In this document: positions 5,128 through 42,716 of the stretch, piece after piece
Numbering within the stretch: the stretch's first letter is position 1
Layout: every line of letters starts with the position of its first letter
Assembly: GCA_046496595.1 (NCBI GenBank)
Contig: JAWOGU010000488.1
Coordinates: 1 to 42,896 of the forward strand
DNA length: 42,896 nucleotides
Source of the DNA: Chloroflexota bacterium
GTDB taxonomy: Bacteria; Chloroflexota; Anaerolineae; Promineifilales; Promineifilaceae
Reading direction: 5' to 3'
Translations under genes and position numbers: made by a program
The notes under the pieces: model-generated
The model's input: the letters and a program-made list of their open reading frames with translations, nothing else
The model's database searches: none
Told to the model about the DNA's origin: nothing

Positions 5128-5128
5128 A

Positions 5129-5246
5129 GGTGTGGAGGTGTAGGGGTGATGGGGTGTGGAGCAAGGCCATGGTCATGGTAAAAGGGTTTTTCACCCCATC
5201 ACCCGCTCACCCCATCACCTCCACATCTTCTCACCCCGATCACCTC
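5129..5246. repeat. Inverted pair of octamer arrays: (GGTGNNGG)x4, a 29-nt spacer, then (TCACCNNN)x7
   Basis: The left arm GGTGTGGAGGTGTAGGGGTGATGGGGTGTGGA (5129-5160) is largely complementary to CACCCCATCACCCGCTCACCCCATCACCTCCAC (5192-5224). It sits immediately 3' of the WYL gene stop, so it is terminator-like. Confidence 0.7.
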
Positions 5247-14796: not shown

Positions 14797-14890
14797 CCTG
14801 AGCTTGTCGAAGGCCGTTGGTTCGGCCAAAGGCCGTTGGTTCGGCCAAAGGCCGTTGGTTCGGCCAAAGGCCGTTGGTTTCGACAGGCTC
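14797..14890. repeat. REP-like hairpin arms enclosing about 3.6 tandem copies of a 19-bp unit GGCCGTTGGTTCGGCCAAA
   Basis: Units at 14812-14830, 14831-14849 and 14850-14868 are identical, with a partial unit at 14869-14879. They are flanked by CCTGAGCTTGTCGAA and TTCGACAGGCTCA. Confidence 0.85.
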
Positions 14891-15063: not shown

Positions 15064-15720
15064 TTATGAGTCGTAGAGAATGACGATGAAGCGCTTGGGG
15101 CCATGCACGCCAATCGCCATCGTTTGTTCGATGTCGGCCGTTTTGCTGGGACCGCTGACGAGGGTGATGTTGCTGGGCGGGGCGGCCTGCCGGGCGGCGG
15201 TCCAGGTGAAGAGGTCACTGGTGAGCTTGCTGGTGGGCAGCAGGACGACGTGGACAGGCGGCAGCAGTGTGGCCAACCGGCTTTTGCCGGGACCGCTGCT
15301 GATGACCACGCTGCCGGTTTCGGCCAGCCCCACGTCGCCGCTGCTAAGACCAACGTCGGCGGTAATGCAAAATTCGCGCAGGCTGCCGGCGGTTTGTTCA
15401 ACGATGTGCCATTGGACAGCAGGAAAGGCGGCGGGCAGGTTGAGGGATGCGAGCGGTTCTTCGTGGTTGGCAACGGCCGTTTTCACCCCCAACTCCTGCA
15501 ATAAATCAGCCAAAGCGGAAACGGCCGTTTCCAGCCCATCCGCCCGTATCACTTCCCCGTGAACGGCCGTCAGCGCCAGCTCAAACTGCGCCGCCAAATC
15601 CTCAAACTCCCGATGTGACCGCCATACCGGCGGCCGCGCAGTTCTCTGCGCATTTTCTTTTAACCTGTTCAAGATGAGTTCGCGTGAATCAGTCATATTG
15701 TCGGATAGTCCTTTCGTCAA
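15064..15720 (-). CDS. lutC: Lactate utilization protein C (LUD domain)
   Basis: Third gene after lutA and lutB. LUD-type sequence of about 210 aa. The ORF-track start at 15720 is a TTG inside a heptamer array; the ATG at 15696 (MTDSRELILNRL) is an alternative start. Confidence 0.75.
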   Translation of the reverse strand: MTKGLSDNMTDSRELILNRLKENAQRTARPPVWRSHREFEDLAAQFELALTAVHGEVIRADGLETAVSALADLLQELGVKTAVANHEEPLASLNLPAAFPAVQWHIVEQTAGSLREFCITADVGLSSGDVGLAETGSVVISSGPGKSRLATLLPPVHVVLLPTSKLTSDLFTWTAARQAAPPSNITLVSGPSKTADIEQTMAIGVHGPKRFIVILYDS

Positions 15721-15744
15721 TCGTCAATCGTCAATCGTCAATCT
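15714..15744. repeat. Heptamer array (TCGTCAA)x4 plus a partial unit
   Basis: Perfect tandem copies at 15714, 15721, 15728 and 15735. The array spans the lutB stop codon, the 10-nt spacer and the annotated lutC start. Confidence 0.9.
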
Positions 15745-21201: not shown

Positions 21202-21355
21202 GATGTGGGGATGTGGAGGTGTAGAGGTGTAGAGGTGATGGGGTGTAGAGGTGATGGGGTGTGGAGGTGATGGGGTGTGGATACTTTGCCACTTTGCACC
21301 CTGCCACTTTGCACCCTGCCACCTTGCACTCTGCCACCTTGCCACTCTGCCACCC
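21202..21355. repeat. 154-bp composite array: ten G-rich octamers (GGTGTAGA/GGTGATGG/GGTGTGGA), then about ten 7-8-nt units (CACTTTGC/ACCCTGC)
   Basis: Units indexed by hand. The first block is 21202-21281 and the second is 21282-21355. The first block shares GGTGATGGGGTGTGGAGGTG with the array at 5129-5160. Confidence 0.85.
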
Positions 21356-21360
21356 TTTTC

Positions 21361-24081
21361 TTAACTCCCCCGTATGAAGCCCAGTTGTTCAAATACAGAT
21401 TCAAAGCTAAACACGACGCTGCCCATCATCACCAGCACCAAAATCGGAATAAGGACGGCGACAATAAAGGCGAGGAAAGGAAGCACAATGGTACGCCAGC
21501 CGCGAGTATTGTGGGCTGTCGCTGCGCCCATCCAGTAAGAGATGAACCCTAAAATTGTGCCTAAGGCAATAGCCAGGGGCGCGAAAACGGGAATCAAAGC
21601 GACCAACTCAACCAGATAGACCACATGGGCAAACCCCAACCCACGCAGGGTGCGCGTGTAATTGCCCTGGCGGGAGAGACTGCGACCGACCACCGTTACG
21701 GCGCCTATGGTGAGGAACCAGGCTGCCACGCGGATGAACAGGGAAAACCAGTTCAGATCTCTATCCGGTTTAACGAGGTAGGTGAACAGAATCGTGCCCA
21801 CACCCACTAATAGGGCGGGCGCTGTCATCCGGGAATCGGCTACCACTTCCTGGTAAGCGGAGCGATCAAAGACCATGACTCTACCAGCCAGCGGCAGCCA
21901 CGTTTTTACGTCTTTCAAGCCAAGCCACAGATTTGTTAAAGACCAGGGGCCAGAGTTAACGGCCGTTTCCCCTCCGCCTCCTTCTTCTTTAACCAAAATA
22001 GGCTGTTCGCGCCGGTTGTTCAAAATATGAAACACGTCCACCGAATTGCGCGTCGGTGCGACCGCCATGTCCGCCGGGTGGAACAGGAAAGCATCCGTCT
22101 GCTCGCCGCCCAACCCGCCGTGATTGCCGATTAGCTCTTCCAGGGCAGCAACCGTGCCATCGTCGTAAACTGTGCTGATCACCATCAAATCGCCGGCGTG
22201 GGGGAAATCCATGACGCGCTTCACCTGCCAGATGCGGGTGTCCAGGTCGGCGTGTCCATGGGCGTTGGCGTCGGCTGGGGCGTAGAGCAGCAGCGGATCG
22301 ATGCCTGTAACTACACCGGTATCAAGATTGCGCTGTCCTTGTTTGCCCAGCACAATCGGCGCGCCATCTTCCCCATAACCGCAGACAATGCCAATGCCGG
22401 GATGCGCCACCAGCGCCGGCACCATGCCGGGATAGGCGGCGTCCAATTCGCTTACTTTGATTTTGCGGGGATACAAATCGAAATAGACCTGCGCCAGGTT
22501 GCCGCTGCCATAAGCCGTTACCTGGGCCGGTTTGTCGTGGCCGATGTCGCCGGCCGTTTCTTCTTGTTTTTTGGCGTTTTTGTCGAGAACTTTCTGACCG
22601 CGTTTGGCCAGCGCCCGACCACCCATGCCGCCCACGCCAGACTGCTGGATGTTTTCCAGTTCGCCGGAAACGGCCGTTAACGAAGTCACGCCCGTATCGC
22701 CGCCCATAGATTGGGTGACAGTGGTGCCCTGCGGCAGCTGCTGCTCGATAAACTCTTTGAGTGAAATGCCGTAGCGCTGTTTAAAGGTTGGGCCAAACGA
22801 TTGGCCGTGATCCGACAGAATGATGAGGTCATAAGGGCGCGGCGCTTTATCTTGAATGGTTTTGAGGACGCGGGCAATGACGCTGTCGTAGGTCGCCAGC
22901 ACTTTAAAGGCATCGCTGGTCCAGGGACCGGAGTGGTGGGCCACTTCGTCGTAACCAGGCCAGGTGACATAGATGCTGGGCGCGCCGCGAATGATGTCCA
23001 GTTCAGCCAGGTTGGCGGCGATGTCGCGCATAAAAACGGTGGTGGCTGCCCGCACAAAGGGGTAGCCATGCGCCATGCGGTTCAGGCGGGGCTGTACGTC
23101 TTTGCGCTTTTGCTGCCACCCTTCCCACACTTCGCGCAGGACATCCACCAAAAACAGGACGATGGTGCGGGTTAAAAAGTAGGGGTTGAGCATGAGCAGG
23201 TAAACATCTTCGGCCCGTTTTTTCTTTTCATCATCGGCGGCGTCGAACAACCCGGCCAATGTCAGCAGTGACTTTTCAGCGTCGCCGTTGAGCATGTTGT
23301 TGATGCTGGAGCCGCCGCGCATGAGACCCTTGCCCTGGGCATAACGGCCGTTTAACTCCGACGCATCCGACCCCGACACATACAGTTTTTGCTGGTCCTT
23401 GTCGAACCAGCGGAAGGCGGGAATGTCGCTGTTGTCGCCGAACATGATGCCGGCCTGGCAGGCCGACGTTTGCGAAGGAATGCCGCAGTCCACCCGCGTC
23501 AGTTGATACCCTTCCTTGCGCATCAAGCGTTCCAGAGTGGGTAAACGGCCGTCGGTCAGCGCTTTTTTGATGTGGTGATAGCTCAACCCGTCAATCTCCA
23601 ACATCACCAGGCCGCGTTGATGGGGATCGATGTCGGCATATGACTGCCTTCTCGCCAGCCGTTCGATAAGACCCTGGTAGAAGGAACCTTCATCGTTCAC
23701 GTCCAAAACACCGGTCAGGACAATGTTGACAGCGGCAAAAACCAGACCGCCCAGGATGGCGCTGAGCCAGCCGGACACTTCAAAAACGGGCAGGAGGTAT
23801 GAGGTGATGAGCAGGGCGGCGGCGTTGACCAGGAAACCCAGCACGAAAACGGCGATGAAGCCTAACGGTCGTGCCAGCAGCAGCACCAACGGCCGGATCA
23901 TCAAGTTGACGATACTCAGCAAAAAAGCGGCCGCAAACGCCTCTAACAGGGCGATGGAATTAGCGCCGCCAAACGAGATACCGGGGAAGATAGCGGCCGT
24001 TAGCAGCAAGGAAAAGCCATCTACCACCCACAAGGTTAAAAAACGTAAAAATGCTTTGGCTACACGCGAAAGTCTGCTCAT
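21361..24081 (-). CDS. Multi-domain membrane protein: N-terminal holin-4-2/DUF360-like helices, alkaline-phosphatase-superfamily (type I phosphodiesterase-like) core, C-terminal Yip1-like membrane domain
   Basis: N-terminus FLLSIVNLMIRPLVLLLARPLGFIAVFVLGFLVNAAALLITSYLL matches the holin-4-2 pattern. The core carries VMLEIDGLSYHH, PSQTSACQAG, DEVAHHSGP, LSDHGQS and GNHGGLGG. The C-terminal approximately 190 aa are polytopic. Confidence 0.6.
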   Translation of the reverse strand: MSRLSRVAKAFLRFLTLWVVDGFSLLLTAAIFPGISFGGANSIALLEAFAAAFLLSIVNLMIRPLVLLLARPLGFIAVFVLGFLVNAAALLITSYLLPVFEVSGWLSAILGGLVFAAVNIVLTGVLDVNDEGSFYQGLIERLARRQSYADIDPHQRGLVMLEIDGLSYHHIKKALTDGRLPTLERLMRKEGYQLTRVDCGIPSQTSACQAGIMFGDNSDIPAFRWFDKDQQKLYVSGSDASELNGRYAQGKGLMRGGSSINNMLNGDAEKSLLTLAGLFDAADDEKKKRAEDVYLLMLNPYFLTRTIVLFLVDVLREVWEGWQQKRKDVQPRLNRMAHGYPFVRAATTVFMRDIAANLAELDIIRGAPSIYVTWPGYDEVAHHSGPWTSDAFKVLATYDSVIARVLKTIQDKAPRPYDLIILSDHGQSFGPTFKQRYGISLKEFIEQQLPQGTTVTQSMGGDTGVTSLTAVSGELENIQQSGVGGMGGRALAKRGQKVLDKNAKKQEETAGDIGHDKPAQVTAYGSGNLAQVYFDLYPRKIKVSELDAAYPGMVPALVAHPGIGIVCGYGEDGAPIVLGKQGQRNLDTGVVTGIDPLLLYAPADANAHGHADLDTRIWQVKRVMDFPHAGDLMVISTVYDDGTVAALEELIGNHGGLGGEQTDAFLFHPADMAVAPTRNSVDVFHILNNRREQPILVKEEGGGGETAVNSGPWSLTNLWLGLKDVKTWLPLAGRVMVFDRSAYQEVVADSRMTAPALLVGVGTILFTYLVKPDRDLNWFSLFIRVAAWFLTIGAVTVVGRSLSRQGNYTRTLRGLGFAHVVYLVELVALIPVFAPLAIALGTILGFISYWMGAATAHNTRGWRTIVLPFLAFIVAVLIPILVLVMMGSVVFSFESVFEQLGFIRGS

Positions 24082-24181: not shown

Positions 24182-26626
24182 TTATTCATCAACGCGCACC
24201 GGCGTCAGCACCAGAAAATCGTCCTGGGTGATGCGTCCTTCCGGCGTGACGATTTGCAGCCGCTGAAAACCGCTTTCCGGCGAATGGGTGTAGACGCCGA
24301 GAATGATGGGATAGACGTCCGGCGGCGTGTTGGCGTCCAAGGTGATGGTCATGGGGATGATTTGGTCCGCGCCGGTTTCCCAGGTAGAGGTAGGATCAGT
24401 CGGCGGCTGGATGTCCTGGCTGCCGTAGCGGGTGGTGGTTTGCAGATCTACAACCTGGGCGAAGAAGGTGTAGTTATGGGTTAACGGCCGTTTTGCCCGC
24501 CAGTAGGTATCCAATTCAAGTACGCCGCCCGCTTGTGTCTGTCGCGGCGCCAGTTCGTAGCCCACCAACTCCAACTCGTTGCCAAAGTTGACCGAAAGGG
24601 GGTTGGGGTAGGCGCCGGAAACGGTTTCCAACGGTATCGTCGCCACTTGCACCGCATCGTTGACAACTGGCAAATCCGTATAACTTACCGGCAGACGGGT
24701 ACAGGCGGGGCAGGTGTTATAGTCATATAAACCGATGTTGAGCGCCAGGTCAACCGGGGCAATGGCGGTCGGCGGCACGGTCAGTTTGTAGCGGTTGACG
24801 ATATGGTCGCCGGGTTTCAGCAGCCGGGTTGCCAGCAGCCCTTGTCCGAGGAACATATCGCGTTGGGCAATGGGGCGGCCTAAAACGGGATCAGTCAGGT
24901 GGACAAACACAGACCAATCCCGGTCCATCGGTTCCAGCACTTCCCACTCCAAAGCCAGCCAGAGATCGTCACCGGGGGAAACGGACACTTCGGCCTTGCT
25001 CAGTGTAGGCGTTTTGCCCAGTTCATAGCCTATCAATTTCAGCTTTCCGCCAAATTCCGCCTCCCCGCGATTGAAGGGTGAGGCATAAACCGGTGGCTCA
25101 TAAGCCGGTTGAATCCATAGCCAGGGCGCCAGGGCGGCAATGACAAACATAAACGCGCCGAATGCGCCAGCCATCCAGCGCGCCGCTTTCGGCGGCAGCC
25201 AGCCCACCAGCCCCACCAGCAGCAGCACCGACAACGCGGAAACGGCCGTGAACACCAACCGCCCCTGCGACGACCAGGTGGTGGTGGCCCACTGGATTAA
25301 CCCAAATACCACCGCCCCGGCAAACAGCAGGCATACTACCAGGCCAAATTGATAGACGACGAAATATAAAAGATTAGAGATTAAAGATTGAAGATGCCAC
25401 GTCCAACCGCCAATCTTTAATCTCCAATCTTTAAGCTTTTGCCCAAAATACACCCCAAACCCCACCACCGACGCCATTAAAACCGTATTCAGCAGCCCGT
25501 AAATCCACATGGGCATGGGCACGTTGACGCCGCCGAACAAGCCCCAGTAGGCCATCATGAAACCCTGTCGTTCGCCCCACAACTGGGCCAGGGAGGCCGG
25601 ATTGGCGCGCTGCCCCAGGACGGCGATGAAGGCGTTCCAACCTAAAAAGTCGCCATATAGCTGGATGTTGCGCCAGTACCACCAGCCGGCGATGAGGATG
25701 ACAGGGATGAGTAATAACGCAAAATAGAGGATGGATTGGAGCAAGGTTTTGAAGAGTTGGGTGTAGGAGAGGAAACGGCCGTTTTCCCCCTCCATCGTCA
25801 TCACCTGCCAGCGCGCCACAAAAATCGTCCCCCACGCCAGCGGCAGCAGCGCAAACGTACCCTGTTTTGTAAGCACCCCCAGCCCAATCACCACCCCCAG
25901 CTGCAGCCAATCCCACACCTTCGGCACTCGCCATTCCCCACTCGCCGCTCGCCACTCGCCACTCGCCACCCGCCACTCGGCACCCTGCCCACTGCGCACT
26001 GTAAACTGCCCACTGTTCACCGCCTTCAACATCAGCCAAACCGCCAGTGACGCCAACAGAACAGCCAGATTATCATTGTTGACCGCGCCGCTGATAAACA
26101 AGAACATCGGCAAAAAAGCCGTCACCGCCGCCGCTCCCAAGGCAATCTCTGGCCGTCTCGGAACTACTTTTAGCCCGATGAGATAGGTGAGCAGCACCGT
26201 GCCCGCGCTCATCAACACCGAAGCCAGGCGCACCAGCCGCACCGCCAACAGCGTGCCCTGCCACAGATTCGCCTCAGGATCATGAATGGTGAGATTGATG
26301 TTCCCATCTTCGGTAATAATGCCGTTATCCACATGTGGATTCAGCCAGCGCACGGCTTCCATATCACGGGTGTCTATCCAAAATGTCAGGGCTGCGCCCA
26401 TGTAGTAGTACAATGGAGGCTGGCTCGCTTCCTGTTTCCACGGTCCCGCCAGCGCCGGATCAAATACCTGCACCGGCAGCGGATTTCCATCGGCCAGATG
26501 GCGGATCATGGGGTAGTGCCACAATTCGTCGGATGCTTCAAAAACAGGTGTGGTCAGGGCATAAACAGTGCCGAGCAGCACGAATAAAACGAGTATCAGG
26601 CTGAGAATTCTTTTTTGCGTCATCAC
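24182..26626 (-). CDS. GT39/ArnT-like (GT-C fold) glycosyltransferase with a C-terminal soluble extension
   Basis: N-terminal approximately 520 aa are polytopic, with the early periplasmic-loop motif EASDELWHYPMIRH and YYY/PPLYYY. The C-terminal approximately 290 aa are soluble. The ORF is uninterrupted across two embedded repeat elements. Confidence 0.7.
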   Translation of the reverse strand: MMTQKRILSLILVLFVLLGTVYALTTPVFEASDELWHYPMIRHLADGNPLPVQVFDPALAGPWKQEASQPPLYYYMGAALTFWIDTRDMEAVRWLNPHVDNGIITEDGNINLTIHDPEANLWQGTLLAVRLVRLASVLMSAGTVLLTYLIGLKVVPRRPEIALGAAAVTAFLPMFLFISGAVNNDNLAVLLASLAVWLMLKAVNSGQFTVRSGQGAEWRVASGEWRAASGEWRVPKVWDWLQLGVVIGLGVLTKQGTFALLPLAWGTIFVARWQVMTMEGENGRFLSYTQLFKTLLQSILYFALLLIPVILIAGWWYWRNIQLYGDFLGWNAFIAVLGQRANPASLAQLWGERQGFMMAYWGLFGGVNVPMPMWIYGLLNTVLMASVVGFGVYFGQKLKDWRLKIGGWTWHLQSLISNLLYFVVYQFGLVVCLLFAGAVVFGLIQWATTTWSSQGRLVFTAVSALSVLLLVGLVGWLPPKAARWMAGAFGAFMFVIAALAPWLWIQPAYEPPVYASPFNRGEAEFGGKLKLIGYELGKTPTLSKAEVSVSPGDDLWLALEWEVLEPMDRDWSVFVHLTDPVLGRPIAQRDMFLGQGLLATRLLKPGDHIVNRYKLTVPPTAIAPVDLALNIGLYDYNTCPACTRLPVSYTDLPVVNDAVQVATIPLETVSGAYPNPLSVNFGNELELVGYELAPRQTQAGGVLELDTYWRAKRPLTHNYTFFAQVVDLQTTTRYGSQDIQPPTDPTSTWETGADQIIPMTITLDANTPPDVYPIILGVYTHSPESGFQRLQIVTPEGRITQDDFLVLTPVRVDE
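25368..25435. repeat. AAGATTN-family heptamer hairpin embedded in-frame in the GT39 gene
   Basis: Left arm AAAGATTAGAGATTAAAGATTGAAGAT, a 16-nt spacer, right arm AATCTTTAATCTCCAATCTTTAAG. Translated as KLKDWRLKIGGWTWHLQSLISNLLYF. Same family as the alaS-flanking elements. Confidence 0.8.
25925..26022. repeat. Fourteen consecutive heptamers (nine CACTCGC-like plus five NNCACTG-like) embedded in-frame in the GT39 gene
   Basis: Indexed unit by unit. Translated on the minus strand as SGQFTVRSGQGAEWRVASGEWRAASGEWRV. The minus strand reads CGGTGAA CAGTGGG CAGTTTA CAGTGCG..., the same family as 42619-42716. Confidence 0.85.
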
Positions 26627-38141: not shown

Positions 38142-38258
38142 AAAGATTAAAGAATAAAGATTGCTTCACCATAAACCCTCTGCGTTCTCCGCGCTCTCCG
38201 CGGTGAAAAAAGAACTTTTGCCGAAGACCTAATCTTCAATCTTTAATCTTCAATTATT
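38142..38258. repeat. Nested element: (AAAGATT AAAGAAT AAAGATT), spacer containing CTCTGCGTTCTCCGCGCTCTCCGCGGTGAAAAA (38178-38210), then (AATCTTC AATCTTT AATCTTC AATTATT)
   Basis: Heptamers indexed by hand. The right arm ends directly at the alaS RBS GAGGAGA. Confidence 0.8.
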
Positions 38259-38269
38259 GAGGAGACAAC

Positions 38270-40987
38270 ATGAAACCAACAACCAGCAACGAAATCCGAC
38301 AGGCTTTTCTCGACTTTTTCCAGGAAATGAAGCACGAGGTCGTCGCCAGCGCCCCGCTGCCGCAGAAAGACAACCCGACTTTGCTCTTTACCAACGCCGG
38401 CATGAACCAGTTTGTGGACGTGTTTTTGGGGAAGGAAAAACGGCCGTATAACCGCGCCGCCACCTCCCAAAAATGTATGCGCGTGCAGGGTAAACACAAC
38501 GACCTGGAAAATGTCGGGCCATCGCCGCGCCACCACACCTTCTTTGAAATGCTCGGCAACTTCTCCTTTGGCGATTATTTCAAGGAAGGCGCCATCCGCT
38601 ACGGCTACGATTTCCTGACCAAAGTGTGCCAGATTCCGGCCGATCGGCTCTACTTCACCGTCCATACCAGCGACGACGATGCCTACAACATCTGGTTGAA
38701 CGAAATTGGCGCGCCCCCTGAACGCATTTTACGCATGGGCGACAAGACCAATTTCTGGATGATGGGCGATGTTGGTCCCTGCGGCCCCACCAGCGAAATC
38801 CACTACGACTGGGGGCCGGAACCCTGCACCTGCCGCCAGCCCAACTGCTCCGTGCTGCTGGATAACGACTGCGACCGCTGGCTGGAGGTGTGGAACCTGG
38901 TCTTCATGCAATTTGACCAGGCTGAGGACAGTACGCGCACCCCGCTGCCCAAACCGGGCGTCGATACCGGCATGGGATTGGAACGCCTGACCAGCGTCAT
39001 CCAGGGCACGCAGGCCAACTACGACAACGACCTCTTCCTGGCAGCCATGGATAAAGTGCAGGAAATGCTGGGCGACAGCGATGAAGAGCGCCGCGAAAAA
39101 TACGTAGGCTATCGCGTCATTGGCGACCACGGCCGGGCGGCTACCTTCCTCATTGCCGATGGCGTGCGTCCCGGCGCGGCGGCCGCCAGCTACGTGCTGC
39201 GCATGATCATCCGGCGGGCGGCTCGTTTTGGGCGGCAGATTGGCTTTCAACGGCCGTTTCTAGCAGAAGTCGCGCAGGTGTTCATTGACGAAATGGGCGA
39301 ACACTACCCCGAACTGCGCCAGAACCAGGACCACATCAAACACACCCTCACCCAGGAAGAGCGCCGTTTTGCCCGCACCCTCGATCAGGCCATCGTACAG
39401 CTCCTTGCCATCCTCGAAGATATGGGTCAAAAAGGCGAAACCGAAATCTCCGGCGAAGTGGCCTTCGACCTGTACGCCACCTACGGTCTGCCCCTGGAAA
39501 TCACCCGCGACCTCATCCGCGAGCGCAATATCACCATCGACGAAAAAGGCTATGTCAAAGCGCGCGAACTCCACGCCCTTGCCAGCGGTTCAGGCGCGTT
39601 CAAAGGGTACGAACGTGGCACCAACGCCTACGGCGATTTGCTGCTGGAACTGGTGGAAGCGGGTCAACTGGGAGAAAGCGGCGTGGAATATGATCCCTAC
39701 GCCGGTTCGCGGATGCGGGCGGACGTGGTGGCGCTGCTCAAAGATGGGCAGCCGGCGCCGAAACTAAGCGTGGGCGACAAGGCAGAAATCATCACCGCCG
39801 CCACCCCATTTTACGTGGAAGCGGGCGGCGAGGTCAGCGATACCGGCGTCATCGACTTCCTGGACACCGGGGCGCAGTTCCGCGTGCATACCGTCGCCAA
39901 ACCGGTTCCCGGACTGGTCATCCACTTAGGCGAAGTGGTGCGGGGCGACATTGAAGTGGGGCAGGAAGCGCGGCTGCTGGTGGACGATGCCCGCCGCGCC
40001 GACATTCGGCGGAACCACACCGCCACCCACATTTTGCACCGCGAACTGCGCGCTCACCTGGGTACGCACGTCACTCAGCAGGGATCGCTCGTCGCCCCCG
40101 ACCGCCTGCGTTTCGACTTCTCCCACAATCAGGCGGTGGACAAAACCACGTTGGCAGCCATTGAAGCGGACATCAACCGGGCGATCCTGGCAAATTACCC
40201 CGTCAAAATTCATTACATGGGCCAGAAAGAAGCCATCGACAAAGGCGCCATGGCCCTGTTTGGCGAAAAATACGGCGACATCGTGCGCACCATCACCATT
40301 GGCGGTGAAAGCAGCGGAGCCATTGACTCCGCCTATAGCATGGAACTGTGCGGCGGCCTGCACGTCAGCGAAACCAACGACATCGGCCAGTTCCATTTTG
40401 TGCATGAAGGAGCGGTGGCGGCCGGCGTGCGCCGCATTGAGGCTGTGACCGGGCGCGGCGCGCAGGCGTTGATTGCCGAGCGGCTGGCGGTGCTGGAGCG
40501 TGTGGAACAGCTTCTCAATGCGCCGCTGAACGAGGTGGAAACCCGTCTTACAAACTTGTTGGCGGATCACAAGGCGCTGCAAAAGGAATTCGGCCAGCTT
40601 CAACGGCAGGCGGCGCGCTCCCAATTTGATGCGCTCCTGGCGCAGGTGCAGGAGGTGGCGGGCGTTAAGCTGCTGGCGGCGCAGGTAGACGTTTCCGACG
40701 TGGACACCATGCGCGAGATGGCCGACTGGTTCCGCGACAAGGCAGTCTCCGGTGTGGCGGTGCTGGCGGCGGTGAACGAGGGCAAACCGGTGTTTATCGT
40801 CACGGTGAGTGACGATCTGGTGAAACGCGGCCTGAAAGCGGGCGACATTGTACGCGAGGTTGCTAAGGTGGTGGGCGGCGGCGGCGGCGGCCGGCCAAAC
40901 ATGGCTCAGGCTGGCGGTCGAGACGCGGCGAAGATTCCGGAAGCGCTGGCGTTGGCGCCGGGGCTGGTGGAAGCGGCGTTAAGTTAA
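38270..40987 (+). CDS. alaS: Alanine--tRNA ligase
   Basis: FTNAGMNQF, HHTFFEMLGNFSFGDY, WMMGDVGPCGPTSEIHYD, editing-domain HTATHIL / CGGLHV, and a C-terminal DHHA1-like GGGGGRPNMAQAGG. Confidence 0.95.
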   Translation: MKPTTSNEIRQAFLDFFQEMKHEVVASAPLPQKDNPTLLFTNAGMNQFVDVFLGKEKRPYNRAATSQKCMRVQGKHNDLENVGPSPRHHTFFEMLGNFSFGDYFKEGAIRYGYDFLTKVCQIPADRLYFTVHTSDDDAYNIWLNEIGAPPERILRMGDKTNFWMMGDVGPCGPTSEIHYDWGPEPCTCRQPNCSVLLDNDCDRWLEVWNLVFMQFDQAEDSTRTPLPKPGVDTGMGLERLTSVIQGTQANYDNDLFLAAMDKVQEMLGDSDEERREKYVGYRVIGDHGRAATFLIADGVRPGAAAASYVLRMIIRRAARFGRQIGFQRPFLAEVAQVFIDEMGEHYPELRQNQDHIKHTLTQEERRFARTLDQAIVQLLAILEDMGQKGETEISGEVAFDLYATYGLPLEITRDLIRERNITIDEKGYVKARELHALASGSGAFKGYERGTNAYGDLLLELVEAGQLGESGVEYDPYAGSRMRADVVALLKDGQPAPKLSVGDKAEIITAATPFYVEAGGEVSDTGVIDFLDTGAQFRVHTVAKPVPGLVIHLGEVVRGDIEVGQEARLLVDDARRADIRRNHTATHILHRELRAHLGTHVTQQGSLVAPDRLRFDFSHNQAVDKTTLAAIEADINRAILANYPVKIHYMGQKEAIDKGAMALFGEKYGDIVRTITIGGESSGAIDSAYSMELCGGLHVSETNDIGQFHFVHEGAVAAGVRRIEAVTGRGAQALIAERLAVLERVEQLLNAPLNEVETRLTNLLADHKALQKEFGQLQRQAARSQFDALLAQVQEVAGVKLLAAQVDVSDVDTMREMADWFRDKAVSGVAVLAAVNEGKPVFIVTVSDDLVKRGLKAGDIVREVAKVVGGGGGGRPNMAQAGGRDAAKIPEALALAPGLVEAALS

Positions 40988-41074
40988 AGAATAAAGATTG
41001 AAGATTAAAGATTAAAGATTGGTCTCGAAATTGCGTCCAAATCTTTAATCTTCAATCCGCAATCTTCAATTTTT
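40986..41074. repeat. AAGATTN-family hairpin filling the whole alaS-downstream spacer: five heptamers, a 19-nt spacer, five inverted heptamers
   Basis: AAAGAAT AAAGATT GAAGATT AAAGATT AAAGATT ... AATCTTT AATCTTC AATCCGC AATCTTC AATTTTT. It begins inside the alaS stop codon and ends 1 nt before the next ATG. Confidence 0.85.
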
Positions 41075-41075
41075 C

Positions 41076-42638
41076 ATGAAAGTTATTTCTCTCGATTCTG
41101 ACGACGACATTGTTTCCATCTGCGACCGGCTGGACTGGGCGGGCGAAAAGCAGGTGCTGTTGGTGCTGCCGCCGGATGGGGGCGCGCTGGCGGAGGGATT
41201 GGATCTGGTGCGGCTGCGGCGTCATGCGGATAGGCGGCGGATTGAGGTGGGATTGGTAACGGCCGTTCCCACTCTTACCCGTCAAGCTAAAGCACTTGGT
41301 CTACCCACGTTCTTGACTGTGGAGTCGGCTGAGACGAGCCGGCGGGGCTGGTGGCGCGGGCGGCGGCGCTCTGAAATTGTCGGGCTGCCCACCATCGGCG
41401 GCGTGACGGCGGCCGATTTGCGTCCAGCGTCGATGGATCCAGGGGATATGGAAGAAGCGCAGCGCCGGTCCACGCCGTTGAACAGTCCCAGCTTGTGGAC
41501 CCTGCGTTATCTCTCGATTTTGCTCTTTTTTCTGGCGTTGGCATTGGTTTTTGTGGCTTTCTCCTATCTCGCGCCAGGAGCGACGGTGACGCTGTCGCCC
41601 GAGGTGATACCCATTTCGGTTACCCAGGAAATTCTGGTGGACCCCTTCATTGAAGCGGTGGACTACAGCCGTTTTGCCGTGCCGGGCCGCGTGTTGCAGA
41701 TGGACCAGTCATGGCAGACTGACGTGGAGACCTCCGGCGTGATTGAAGTGCCCAGCGCTTCAGCGCGAGGCAAAGTGGTGTTCGTCAATCGCCTGGAAGA
41801 GGAAGTGACCGTGCCCGCCGGCACACGGGTTTCCACCAGCGAAGGCAGCAATGTGGTCTTCCAAACGCTGACCGCGATGCTTGTGCCAGGTGTGGCAGGC
41901 GGCACAGCCGAAGCTGACGTGATCGCCATCGAACCGGGGCCGCAGGGGAATGTGGCGGCCAATCTTATTAACAAAGTCGAGGGAACCGTAAATATTCAGC
42001 TTGAGGTGCGTAATCTGGAGCCGACGGAAGGGGGTGGGGTGCGCCAGACGTCGGCGGTCACGGAAGCGGATCAGGCGCGGCTGCGCGCCCAGGTGCTGCA
42101 ATTTTTACAGGCGGCGTCGGTGTCGGAGATGGAAGCGCAGTTGACGGCGCGGGAGTTTTTGGCGCGGGATTCGCTGCGCGTAGTCAACGTAGACAGCGAA
42201 ACCTATTCCCATTTTCCGGGCGAGCAGGCAAACCGGCTGGCTTTGGAGATGCGGGCGCAGGTGGCGGGAACGGCCGTTAACACCACCGATGCGTCTGGCA
42301 TAGTTTATGAAGCGTTAGCGGCGCAGGTCCCGGATGGTCATACATTGGTACCGGAGAGCATCAAGTTTGCCAGCGGCGGTGTGGTGGGTGTGGACGAGGC
42401 GGGGCGGGTGACGTTTGAGATGCTCGGCGAGGCGGTGGTCACGCCGGACCTGAATCTGGTTGACGCCCTGGAAGCAATTACCGGGCAGAAACCGGACATT
42501 GCCGTGGCCTATCTCTACCAGGAACTGCCTTTGCGCGAAATCCCTGAAATCCGCGTCTGGCCGAACTGGTTCAACCGCCTGCCGTTTTTAGCGACGCGCA
42601 TTGAGGCAGACGTGCGGGCAGTGGACGGTGGGCAGTGA
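41076..42638 (+). CDS. Membrane-anchored protein of unknown function; the C-terminal part is reminiscent of baseplate J (gp47)-like proteins
   Basis: One TM segment (LRYLSILLFFLALALVFVAFSYL). The extracytoplasmic region carries a pattern I associate from memory with baseplate-J-like annotations (GKVVFVN...VTVPAGTRVST...VFQT...AIEPGPQGNV). Not verifiable here. Confidence 0.45.
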   Translation: MKVISLDSDDDIVSICDRLDWAGEKQVLLVLPPDGGALAEGLDLVRLRRHADRRRIEVGLVTAVPTLTRQAKALGLPTFLTVESAETSRRGWWRGRRRSEIVGLPTIGGVTAADLRPASMDPGDMEEAQRRSTPLNSPSLWTLRYLSILLFFLALALVFVAFSYLAPGATVTLSPEVIPISVTQEILVDPFIEAVDYSRFAVPGRVLQMDQSWQTDVETSGVIEVPSASARGKVVFVNRLEEEVTVPAGTRVSTSEGSNVVFQTLTAMLVPGVAGGTAEADVIAIEPGPQGNVAANLINKVEGTVNIQLEVRNLEPTEGGGVRQTSAVTEADQARLRAQVLQFLQAASVSEMEAQLTAREFLARDSLRVVNVDSETYSHFPGEQANRLALEMRAQVAGTAVNTTDASGIVYEALAAQVPDGHTLVPESIKFASGGVVGVDEAGRVTFEMLGEAVVTPDLNLVDALEAITGQKPDIAVAYLYQELPLREIPEIRVWPNWFNRLPFLATRIEADVRAVDGGQ

Positions 42639-42716
42639 ACAGTGGACAGTGAACGGTGAACGGTGGACAGTGAACGGTGGACCGACTGTAAACTGTAAAC
42701 TGTTCACTGTAAACTG
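42619..42716. repeat. Fourteen consecutive heptamers: nine CAGTGAA/CGGTGGA-type plus five (CCGACTG TAAACTG TAAACTG TTCACTG TAAACTG)
   Basis: Indexed unit by unit. It starts in the last six codons of the upstream gene. TTCACTG is the exact complement of CAGTGAA. It has the same 9+5 unit layout as the 25925-26022 array. Confidence 0.85.

Follow-up and report, generated by a model that had tools for sequence, protein, structure and literature searches.

How does a family of repeats that belongs to the spaces between genes come to lie in frame inside a gene for a membrane protein, and which of the two is under selection there, the DNA or the peptide it encodes? The question is raised by contig JAWOGU010000488.1 (assembly GCA_046496595.1) from a Chloroflexota bacterium of the family Promineifilaceae. 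We refer to the 42,896 nucleotides (nt) analysed as the window. On its minus strand, at 24182..26626, an open reading frame (ORF) with a GTG start reads through two repeats made of 7-nt units, or heptamers: a hairpin at 25362-25439 and a tandem array at 25921-26022. Our answer, which we hold to be probable, is that these are heptamer simple-sequence repeats subject to slippage and to homogenisation between hairpin arms, which persist only in permissive loops of the protein and change there in 21-nt steps.

The host gene encodes 814 amino acids without interruption, in agreement with an initial annotation of the window that had described both repeats as elements of intergenic type. From its sequence, the product is a putative GT39/PMT_2 (ArnT-like, GT-C type) glycosyltransferase, an activity that is predicted from a marginal signal: the Pfam match to PMT_2 (PF13231) reaches 26.5 bits, just over the cut-off of 26.1, and covers residues 132-207 only. 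A search of NCBIfam with the host protein gave no match, and a profile search of Protein Data Bank (PDB) sequences found no relative. The protein has more than 1800 homologues, all in Chloroflexota, from sources labelled Anaerolineae, Ardenticatenaceae, Promineifilaceae or Ca. Leptofilum, where it is often labelled as GT39 or ArnT family; orthologues in the closest representative genomes are 75-76% identical.

Two protein alignments were used: the host protein with 33 homologues, and the host protein with the genes from 80 loci (contigs of Promineifilaceae and Ardenticatenaceae, one genome per species; loci are given here as L numbers). The 34 sequences of the first were the input for an AlphaFold2 model, with a mean predicted local distance difference test score (pLDDT) of 79 and a predicted TM-score (pTM) of 0.74. 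The model contains about 11 transmembrane (TM) helices and a C-terminal beta-sandwich region; a Foldseek search of it against the PDB matched only the latter (transglutaminase, arrestin) and returned nothing for the GT-C domain or the loops. An invariant FEASDELW motif immediately follows TM1 in alignment and model. Topology was derived by counting helices from the basic N-terminus, assigning FEASDELW, by analogy with GT-C enzymes, to the first extracytoplasmic loop, and applying the positive-inside rule. By this reasoning, three loops (A, B and C) would lie on the cytoplasmic side and the C-terminal domain on the outside. Length variation across both alignments is concentrated in a few loops. 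Loop A (residues 200-243 in the host, 17-45 amino acids across orthologues) carries the tandem array; loop B spans residues 274-305 (24-58 amino acids across orthologues); and loop C spans residues 392-427, with 33-36 amino acids in most orthologues, with or without the hairpin. In loops A and B, the range of 17 to 58 amino acids is seen even in lineages free of arrays.

The array in loop A is a lineage-specific addition. Tandem Repeats Finder reports period-7 arrays at 25921-25983 (9.0 copies, 82% matches) and at 25985-26015 (4.4 copies), which bears out the initial count of 14 heptamers translated in frame. On the coding strand, the minus strand, five CAGTNNN-type units come first (25984..26022: CGGTGAA, CAGTGGG, CAGTTTA, CAGTGCG and CAGTGGG), followed by nine GNGAGTG units (25921..25983) translated as (ASGEWRV)n; together they encode A202-V234, in the translation ...SGQFTVRSGQGAEWRVASGEWRAASGEWRV... 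The lag-7 autocorrelation of the loop is 0.62. In the model, residues 205-236 form a coil between two helices, without secondary structure and with pLDDT below 50 at 207-232, and the array 25921-26022 shows no hairpin fold (z-score -0.5). Two of the closest orthologues, L081 (P0004) and L082 (P0006), about 78% identical over aligned positions, lack the GNGAGTG units and read SVTN-TPKVW, with zero insert and a loop A of 17 amino acids versus 44 in the host. Because these two close orthologues are without the array, it represents a lineage-specific expansion. Other orthologues have different heptamer arrays at the same site, with 7-residue-periodic peptides such as SVNSEQW, ITDYRLP, ADCGLRI and QYSVNGNR. 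In the window's own clade, the array starts at the conserved RAVNS codons (..GGTGAACAGT..) at the end of TM4, which themselves form one unit; such a start is consistent with in-place growth from a seed.

The repeat in loop C is of a different kind. It consists of two inverted GATTNNN heptamer arrays and encodes KLKDWRLKIGGWTWHLQSLISNLLYF, the peptide already given in the initial annotation. Tandem Repeats Finder detects AAAGATT x3.9 at 25369-25395 and AATCTTT x4.0 at 25412-25439, and a repeat search delimits two inverted arms of 29 nt each, 86% complementary and spaced by 20 nt. On the mRNA strand they form a 23-bp stem of -34 kcal/mol (z -6.7), and none of 200 dinucleotide shuffles was as stable (0/200). 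In mRNA sense, the 5' arm (25411..25439, minus strand; units AAGCTTA, AAGATTG, GAGATTA and AAGATTG, then G) encodes K397-G406, at the cytoplasmic end of a predicted helix (373-405). The hairpin loop (25391..25410, minus strand) encodes G407-H411, within the predicted turn between both helices (406-411). The 3' arm (25362..25390, minus strand; CAATCTT, TAATCTC, TAATCTT and TTATATT) encodes L412-F422, at the start of the second predicted helix (412-425); pLDDT for the whole block is 72-89. The initial annotation had placed both repeats between hydrophobic helices, in loops that might tolerate an insertion. This description suits the coil of loop A, but not the hairpin, whose arms encode helix ends, whose loop alone corresponds to a turn, and whose surroundings measure 33-36 amino acids regardless. 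Judged from the alignments, the hairpin is a same-length replacement of a poorly conserved helix-turn-helix segment, and no insertion.

Comparison among orthologues indicates that the DNA of the hairpin is what has been conserved. Strong hairpins (z <= -4) are present in loop C of 23 of the 81 orthologues, as opposed to 9/81 for loop A and 0/81 for loop B; being common to so many orthologues, the loop C hairpin is therefore old. In the 23 hairpin-bearing genes, codon identity given the same amino acid is 73% in the arms versus 51% across the remainder of the gene. In hairpin-less orthologues, the loop C segment is 20% identical in protein versus 64% elsewhere, so that the initial reading passes the test it had set for itself: conserved residues in repeat-free orthologues, which would have refuted it, are not found. 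Because the arm codons are over-conserved and the segment is nearly free to vary where no hairpin exists, the peptide RDWRLE...LQSLISNLL is best read as a by-product of conserved DNA, and not the reverse. Across 16 aligned hairpins, 93% of stem cells are paired, with coordinated GATT>GACT / AATC>AGTC double changes; both sides have changed in 6 stem cells, a count that 1 of 500 shuffles reached. Sense and antisense strands do not differ systematically in stability (sense more stable in 11/23), so that nothing here points to RNA structure in particular. The hairpin has also decayed within its clade, in L001, L062, L002-4, L017, L014 and L026, of which L001 and L062 are the window's nearest relatives. 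An Rfam search with the hairpin gave only a chance match to a miRNA precursor (E = 0.37), and a scan of the host gene for terminators and promoters flagged neither the hairpin nor the loop A array. An identity as a repetitive extragenic palindromic (REP) element or REPIN was considered and ruled out: the arms are heptamer arrays without a GTAG or CGTC tag.

Both unit families recur in the window outside the host gene. The heptamer-family sequence GATTNNNGATTNNNGATT occurs 9 times versus 0.00 expected, at 15719-15743, 25372-25429 (host gene), 38231 and 40996-41064. More broadly, the GATTNNN family occupies 15714-15743 and both sides of alaS, a gene at 38270-40987 confirmed by Pfam and already named in the initial annotation as flanked by the family of the hairpin. 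Upstream of alaS lies an intergenic inverted pair of AAGATTN arrays (38142..38254), and immediately 3' of its stop codon lies a GATTNNN-family hairpin (40984..41070). The sequence CAGTNNNCAGTNNNCAGT, allowing up to one mismatch, occurs 11 times versus 0.15 expected, all of them within 25984-26022 and 42619-42716. The second of these sites belongs to CAGTGAA / ACTGTAA heptamer arrays (42616..42716) that overlap the 3' end of ORF 41076-42638. The whole loop A array had initially been assigned to this family. The assignment stands fully for the first 5 of the 14 units and not for the GCGAGTG sub-array, of which no second copy was found across the window. Counting both families, GATTNNN and CAGTNNN, there are 5 further places outside the host gene versus about 0 expected. 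Every array outside the host gene lies in a spacer or overlaps a gene end by a few bases, which matches the initial view of these families as otherwise intergenic. At three gene ends (15714-15743, 40984-40987 and 42616-42638) the arrays supply the stop codon in places: a TGA at 15731 (in GATTGAC), the TAA that ends alaS, and the end of ORF 41076-42638.

We surveyed 1.52 Mb, comprising the window and the 80 loci, with an array detector that counted stretches of 28 nt or longer having at least 16/21 lag-7 matches. It returned 214 period-7 arrays: 106 in the host gene, which accounts for 13% of the bases, and 108 outside it. Of those in the gene, 37 are in loop A, 20 in loop B, 48 in loop C and 1 in loop E; 105 of the 106 thus fall in the three loops inferred to be cytoplasmic. 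Array density per kb is 0.54 in the host gene, 0.016 in other ORFs, and 0.30-0.66 outside ORFs. The arrays inside other ORFs number 19, many of them close to doubtful N-termini. Across loci, arrays in the gene co-occur with arrays in its flanks (26/8 vs 7/31, Fisher p = 1e-6), and arrays are thus a property of the genome. Unit families common to host gene and spacers include AATCTCC, AATCGGT, AAAGATT and AATCCGT. Exact units are shared between gene and flanks of the same locus in 35% of cases versus 21% in a cross-locus control, a modest difference, so that genome-specific concerted evolution is suggested at most.

The arrays also share a characteristic form and distribution. They range from 28 to more than 130 nt, resemble one another at the level of the unit only, and have no defined ends. 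An array followed by its complement is frequent, as in (CGGTAAT)n(ATTACCG)n of L016. On a neighbour-joining tree of conserved columns, they cluster in a single clade of about 35 leaves, the window among them, with a few scattered outside, and lag 7 is the best autocorrelation lag for most members of one large clade. Consensus units that are stop-free on both strands make up 46% of those in the gene versus 27% of those outside ORFs or overlapping ORF ends (p = 0.007).

Close relatives capture the changes as they occur. Host proteins were clustered at 90% identity or above and compared pairwise; at this distance, internal insertions and deletions are confined to the variable loops. P0013 and P0122 (93% identity) differ by 7 amino acids in loop C; P0092 and P0134 (95%) differ by 14 in loop A, 7 in loop C, and 7 just past loop D; and P0009 and P0127 (99.5%) differ by 8 in loop D. 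At the DNA level, L209 and L210 (95% protein identity) differ in loop A by exactly six heptamers (42 nt) and in loop C by exactly three AATCTCC units (21 nt). The 7-residue difference just past loop D in P0092/P0134 is the insertion of a palindrome, with no change in an array. At the peptide RDVALQRL, L210 contains a perfect palindrome, GTAGAGACGTTGCA-T-TGCAACGTCTCTAC (GTAG...CTAC, like tagged REP elements), as a 21-nt in-frame insertion relative to L209. Frameshifted natural alleles were sought in the consensus assemblies of the 80 GTDB loci and nine extra contigs, and none was found. Three broken genes were set aside: L062 has an N-gap at a repeat; L077 ends with its contig; and in L208 (GCA_027493515.1, JAOSKO010000034.1) the neighbouring genes for a CitMHS transporter and transaldolase are fragmented or truncated as well, which we take for sequencing error and not biology.

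Heptamers are not the only small repeats in this gene family. Codon alignment of the nine closest genes revealed a 24-nt element, CACTTCGGCCNNGCTCAGTNCAGG, in either orientation. Orthologues about 75% identical differ in whether they have it at three host-gene sites (in loops B, D and E). At each site it lies in frame, as 8 codons, within AACGGC|...|CGTT, and element-free orthologues keep an intact palindrome. The window's copy, CACTTCGGCCTTGCTCAGTGTAGG, lies at 24986..25009 on the plus strand, is translated from the minus strand as PTLSKAEV, and sits within a split palindrome (AACGGa|...|CGTT); L081-L083, L085 and L087 have an intact GAAACGGCCGTTTCC in its place. Further copies are found in L001 (4612, 5404 and 5793), L082 (1934), L083 (10811), L084 (5782) and L086 (11546). 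In 1.6 Mb of loci, the 12 well-matching copies (up to 3 mismatches) are all in the host gene family; 10 of them have AACGGC|...|CGTT or one-base variants as flanks, and the flanks of 2 (L019, L084) are more degraded. A pair that is 99.5% identical has one versus two copies. The 24-mer core is present in at least 120 metagenome contigs, and among the matches listed there are 122 exact-core copies, mostly with other flanks. The idea that the element always lies inside the palindrome was therefore rejected, since among those matches only 6 of 122 copies do, versus 1.6 expected.

The palindrome itself is a 10-nt sequence, AACGGCCGTT, that occurs 39 times in the window (42.9 kb) versus 0.07 expected, mostly within coding sequences (e.g., at 1079, 2543, 24483, 25774 and 42742). 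In many related loci its density is 0.2-1.7 per kb, and in others it is zero. The host gene contains two intact copies: one in loop B (25774..25783), read as GENGRF, at a site that holds the 24-nt element in L001, L082, L083 and L084, and one at 24483..24492, read as KRPL. A 19-nt perfect tandem repeat, AAGGCCGTTGGTTCGGCCA (x3.7, 100% identity), in the spacer 14810-14879 includes half of AACGGCCGTT. The palindrome resembles the highly iterated palindrome HIP1 of cyanobacteria, and we found no description of it as an iterated palindrome in the literature searched. In Nostoc, a small dispersed repeat (SDR5) reportedly lies inside HIP1. The 24-nt element is likewise very small, sits inside a highly iterated palindrome, and leaves empty orthologous sites intact (AACGGCCGTT). 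It differs in that the palindrome is AACGGCCGTT and not GCGATCGC, in its phylum and sequence, and in that its metagenome copies mostly lack palindrome flanks.

The account that we favour for the heptamers would run as follows. Genomes of Promineifilaceae and Ardenticatenaceae may host genome-wide families of heptanucleotide repeats, often as an array and its complement, that is, as a hairpin. Arrays would arise and turn over in place through replication slippage, and template switching or short-patch conversion would homogenise arms or copies; this mechanism, and the neutrality of the peptides, are what we infer from the patterns above. Survivors in coding DNA would be those that are free of stop codons, have a length divisible by 3, and fall at unconstrained positions of the protein. 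A change in array length would have to be a multiple of 3 and would for this reason proceed in three-unit steps (21 nt, 7 amino acids). As the host protein offers three permissive loops, A, B and C, arrays within the gene could reach intergenic density. The peptides (ASGEWRV repeats; KDWRL.../...LQSLISNL) would be passengers dictated by the DNA. The 24-nt element and the GTAG...CTAC palindrome of L210 also lie in frame in the host gene, which argues for tolerance by the host and not for targeting by one element.

Several points weigh against this account. Relative to other ORFs, the 34-fold in-gene excess is large if tolerance is the sole cause, and neighbouring multi-pass membrane proteins, such as the CitMHS transporter, are without arrays. 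Certain units, GGAGATT among them, are conserved between genomes with about 60% protein identity, which pure slippage and drift would not predict and which hints at a sequence-specific factor. In the loop C hairpin, L209 has a perfect (GGAGATT)3 as one arm; the same arm is much diverged in L210, the other arm being intact. This difference suggests conversion-like homogenisation rather than slow drift, so slippage would have to be joined by conversion-like events. In addition, ORF calls in the flanks followed a crude longest-ORF rule, and the sequences are all metagenome assemblies, in which repeat lengths are open to mis-assembly. The size of the excess and the conservation of GGAGATT may allow for a sequence-specific factor, or for a function.

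Such a function would make the loop C hairpin, and perhaps the arrays of loops A and B, a selected nucleic-acid element: a factor-binding or processing site, or a slippage switch of an envelope glycosyltransferase, with dual coding across the clade. We consider this rather unlikely. If true, DNA structure would dictate the protein sequence of a helix-turn-helix, and the 34-fold excess would reflect targeting or function and not tolerance. A cis-element of this sort could bind a heptamer-specific factor, or act through DNA or RNA structure on mRNA stability, mRNA processing, or a translational pause during membrane insertion, with the protein merely following. Arm nucleotides conserved beyond amino-acid constraint (0.73 vs 0.51), the compensatory double changes, the retention of GGAGATT in 23 loci and in spacers, and the gene-specific excess all agree with it. 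We nonetheless find it unlikely, given that the sense strand shows no G-U asymmetry, that about 1/3 of lineages within the clade have lost the hairpin to decay, that loops A and B carry units differing from genome to genome and are often hairpin-free, and that no Rfam family matches. Selection at the level of the protein, for the peptides ASGEWRV and RDWRLE/LQSLISNL with the DNA periodicity as by-product, appears highly improbable. Orthologues have unrelated peptides in the same loops, the period is 7 nt and not 3 or 21, synonymous positions are over-conserved, the same units stand untranslated in spacers, and loop A is predicted to be disordered; what speaks for such selection is that the hairpin arms encode predicted helical segments (pLDDT ~72-89) and that the basic left arm agrees with the positive-inside rule.

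The remaining explanations are tied to known systems or to error. Rickettsia palindromic elements (RPE) are said to be discrete mobile palindromes of 100-150 bp found in frame in protein genes, and the initial annotation had proposed them as the analogue. The likeness is real in part: a repeat family of spacers lies in frame in a gene as well, at fold-compatible, permissive sites, with a nucleic-acid hairpin and with an array in loop A that is present or absent among close orthologues. The 24-nt element of the host gene also behaves as an insertion: in orthologues without it, the palindrome is empty and intact. That discrete elements were transposed here from spacers and kept where they fell in frame in loops is nevertheless quite improbable for the heptamers. 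RPE share identity across the family, whereas the present arrays consist of 7-nt units and lack defined ends and target duplication; the loop A array grows from conserved codons that already form a unit; near-identical genes differ in place by 3 or 6 units, whole multiples of three; and the gain in length expected of RPE, seen in loop A, is missing in loop C, where the hairpin replaces a segment of the same length. Contingency loci, in which simple-sequence repeats lie in surface-structure genes of Haemophilus, Neisseria and Campylobacter, offer another parallel: one-unit slippage, 7 not being a multiple of 3, would toggle a putative surface-glycan enzyme and produce phase variation. A non-triplet unit in a putative glycosyltransferase gene and a unit number that varies between close relatives are shared with such loci. 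We regard phase variation as very unlikely, however, because those loci rest on a long perfect tract, while the tracts here are imperfect (70-82% matches, with no more than 2 adjacent units identical in the window) and lie mid-gene at three sites, away from the 5' end. Moreover, every length difference seen keeps the frame, and in the consensus assemblies of the orthologous genes examined only L062, L077 and L208 are broken. A pseudogene or an assembly artefact is scarcely credible: repeats do assemble poorly, and one orthologue (L062) has an N-gap at a repeat, but the 814-codon frame is intact, and apart from L062, L077 and L208 the independently assembled orthologues examined are in frame through their own arrays.

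Arrays and related repeats were also noted elsewhere. Deep inside other ORFs they are rare: L023 (3846-3889) and L036 (7707-7745), in genes for a GT4-type glycosyltransferase, and L006 (1331-1371), in a sensor kinase gene. In the GT4-like protein, an AATCTCC array (QSLISNLQSP) replaces YQNLVARL of an array-free orthologue, with length unchanged. In many loci the gene downstream of the host gene is Wzy_C / O-antigen-ligase-like, and it has heptamer arrays at or shortly before its N-terminus (L006 6393, L009 12715, L011 12439, L070 12417). The close relatives L083-L087 have the transaldolase gene immediately after the host gene; between these two genes the window holds a gene (21361-24081) for a 906-residue protein with 4-TM-segment holin-like, type I phosphodiesterase and Yip1 domains. 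Intergenic hairpins of period 8 are present at 5128-5240 and 21206-21356 (GGTGTGGA... opposite TCACCCCA..., and TGTAGAGG... opposite TGCCACC...), so the repeat families of the source genome are not heptamers alone.

Which known class do the heptamers resemble most? Cyanobacteria reportedly have heptanucleotide repeats termed short tandemly repeated repetitive (STRR) sequences. These have been known since 1990, and to our knowledge heptamer repeats have no accepted function or mechanism. The repeats described here resemble STRR and other heptamer simple-sequence repeats: 7-nt units are arranged head to tail, copies are dispersed and mainly intergenic, near gene ends, unit number varies between relatives, and there are several unit families, some with a shared core (CAGT here too), slippage being the assumed origin. 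They are unlike them in their Chloroflexota host, in the frequency of inverted pairs, and in filling one gene family at intergenic density. Among the long simple-sequence repeats of free-living bacteria, heptamers are described as showing the strongest over-representation (Mrazek et al. 2007, cited in PMC4692102), and as being under-represented in coding regions (PMC4692102). The TAACTGA heptamers of Beggiatoaceae, Cyanobacteria and Bacteroidetes give a 7-residue repeat, LSVISYQ, in their open orientation; a few sets are in ORFs (MacGregor 2015, PMC4679880), namely 2 of 24 mapped sets in Microcystis (PMC4679880). Whereas in-ORF sets are rare in that study, we find a hotspot in orthologous genes, with conservation of the hairpin and stepwise dynamics, none of which that study describes. 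In the literature searched, we found no report of repeats of this kind in Promineifilaceae, or of one orthologous gene as their sink. The combination of heptamer arrays, a HIP1-like palindrome and a micro-element within that palindrome in filamentous Chloroflexota mirrors that of filamentous cyanobacteria, an analogy that suggests a shared cause or horizontal spread.

The host gene family thus serves as a natural reporter for heptamer repeats: the reading frame filters the outcomes, and 21-nt steps, arm homogenisation and decay become visible. It also allows selection on DNA to be separated from selection on protein, as synonymous sites in the arms are over-conserved and the segment is nearly free to vary in hairpin-less lineages. 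Repeat DNA can write the sequence of membrane-protein loops, which bears on annotation, on alignments and phylogenies, and on the reading of "conserved motifs" in this family.

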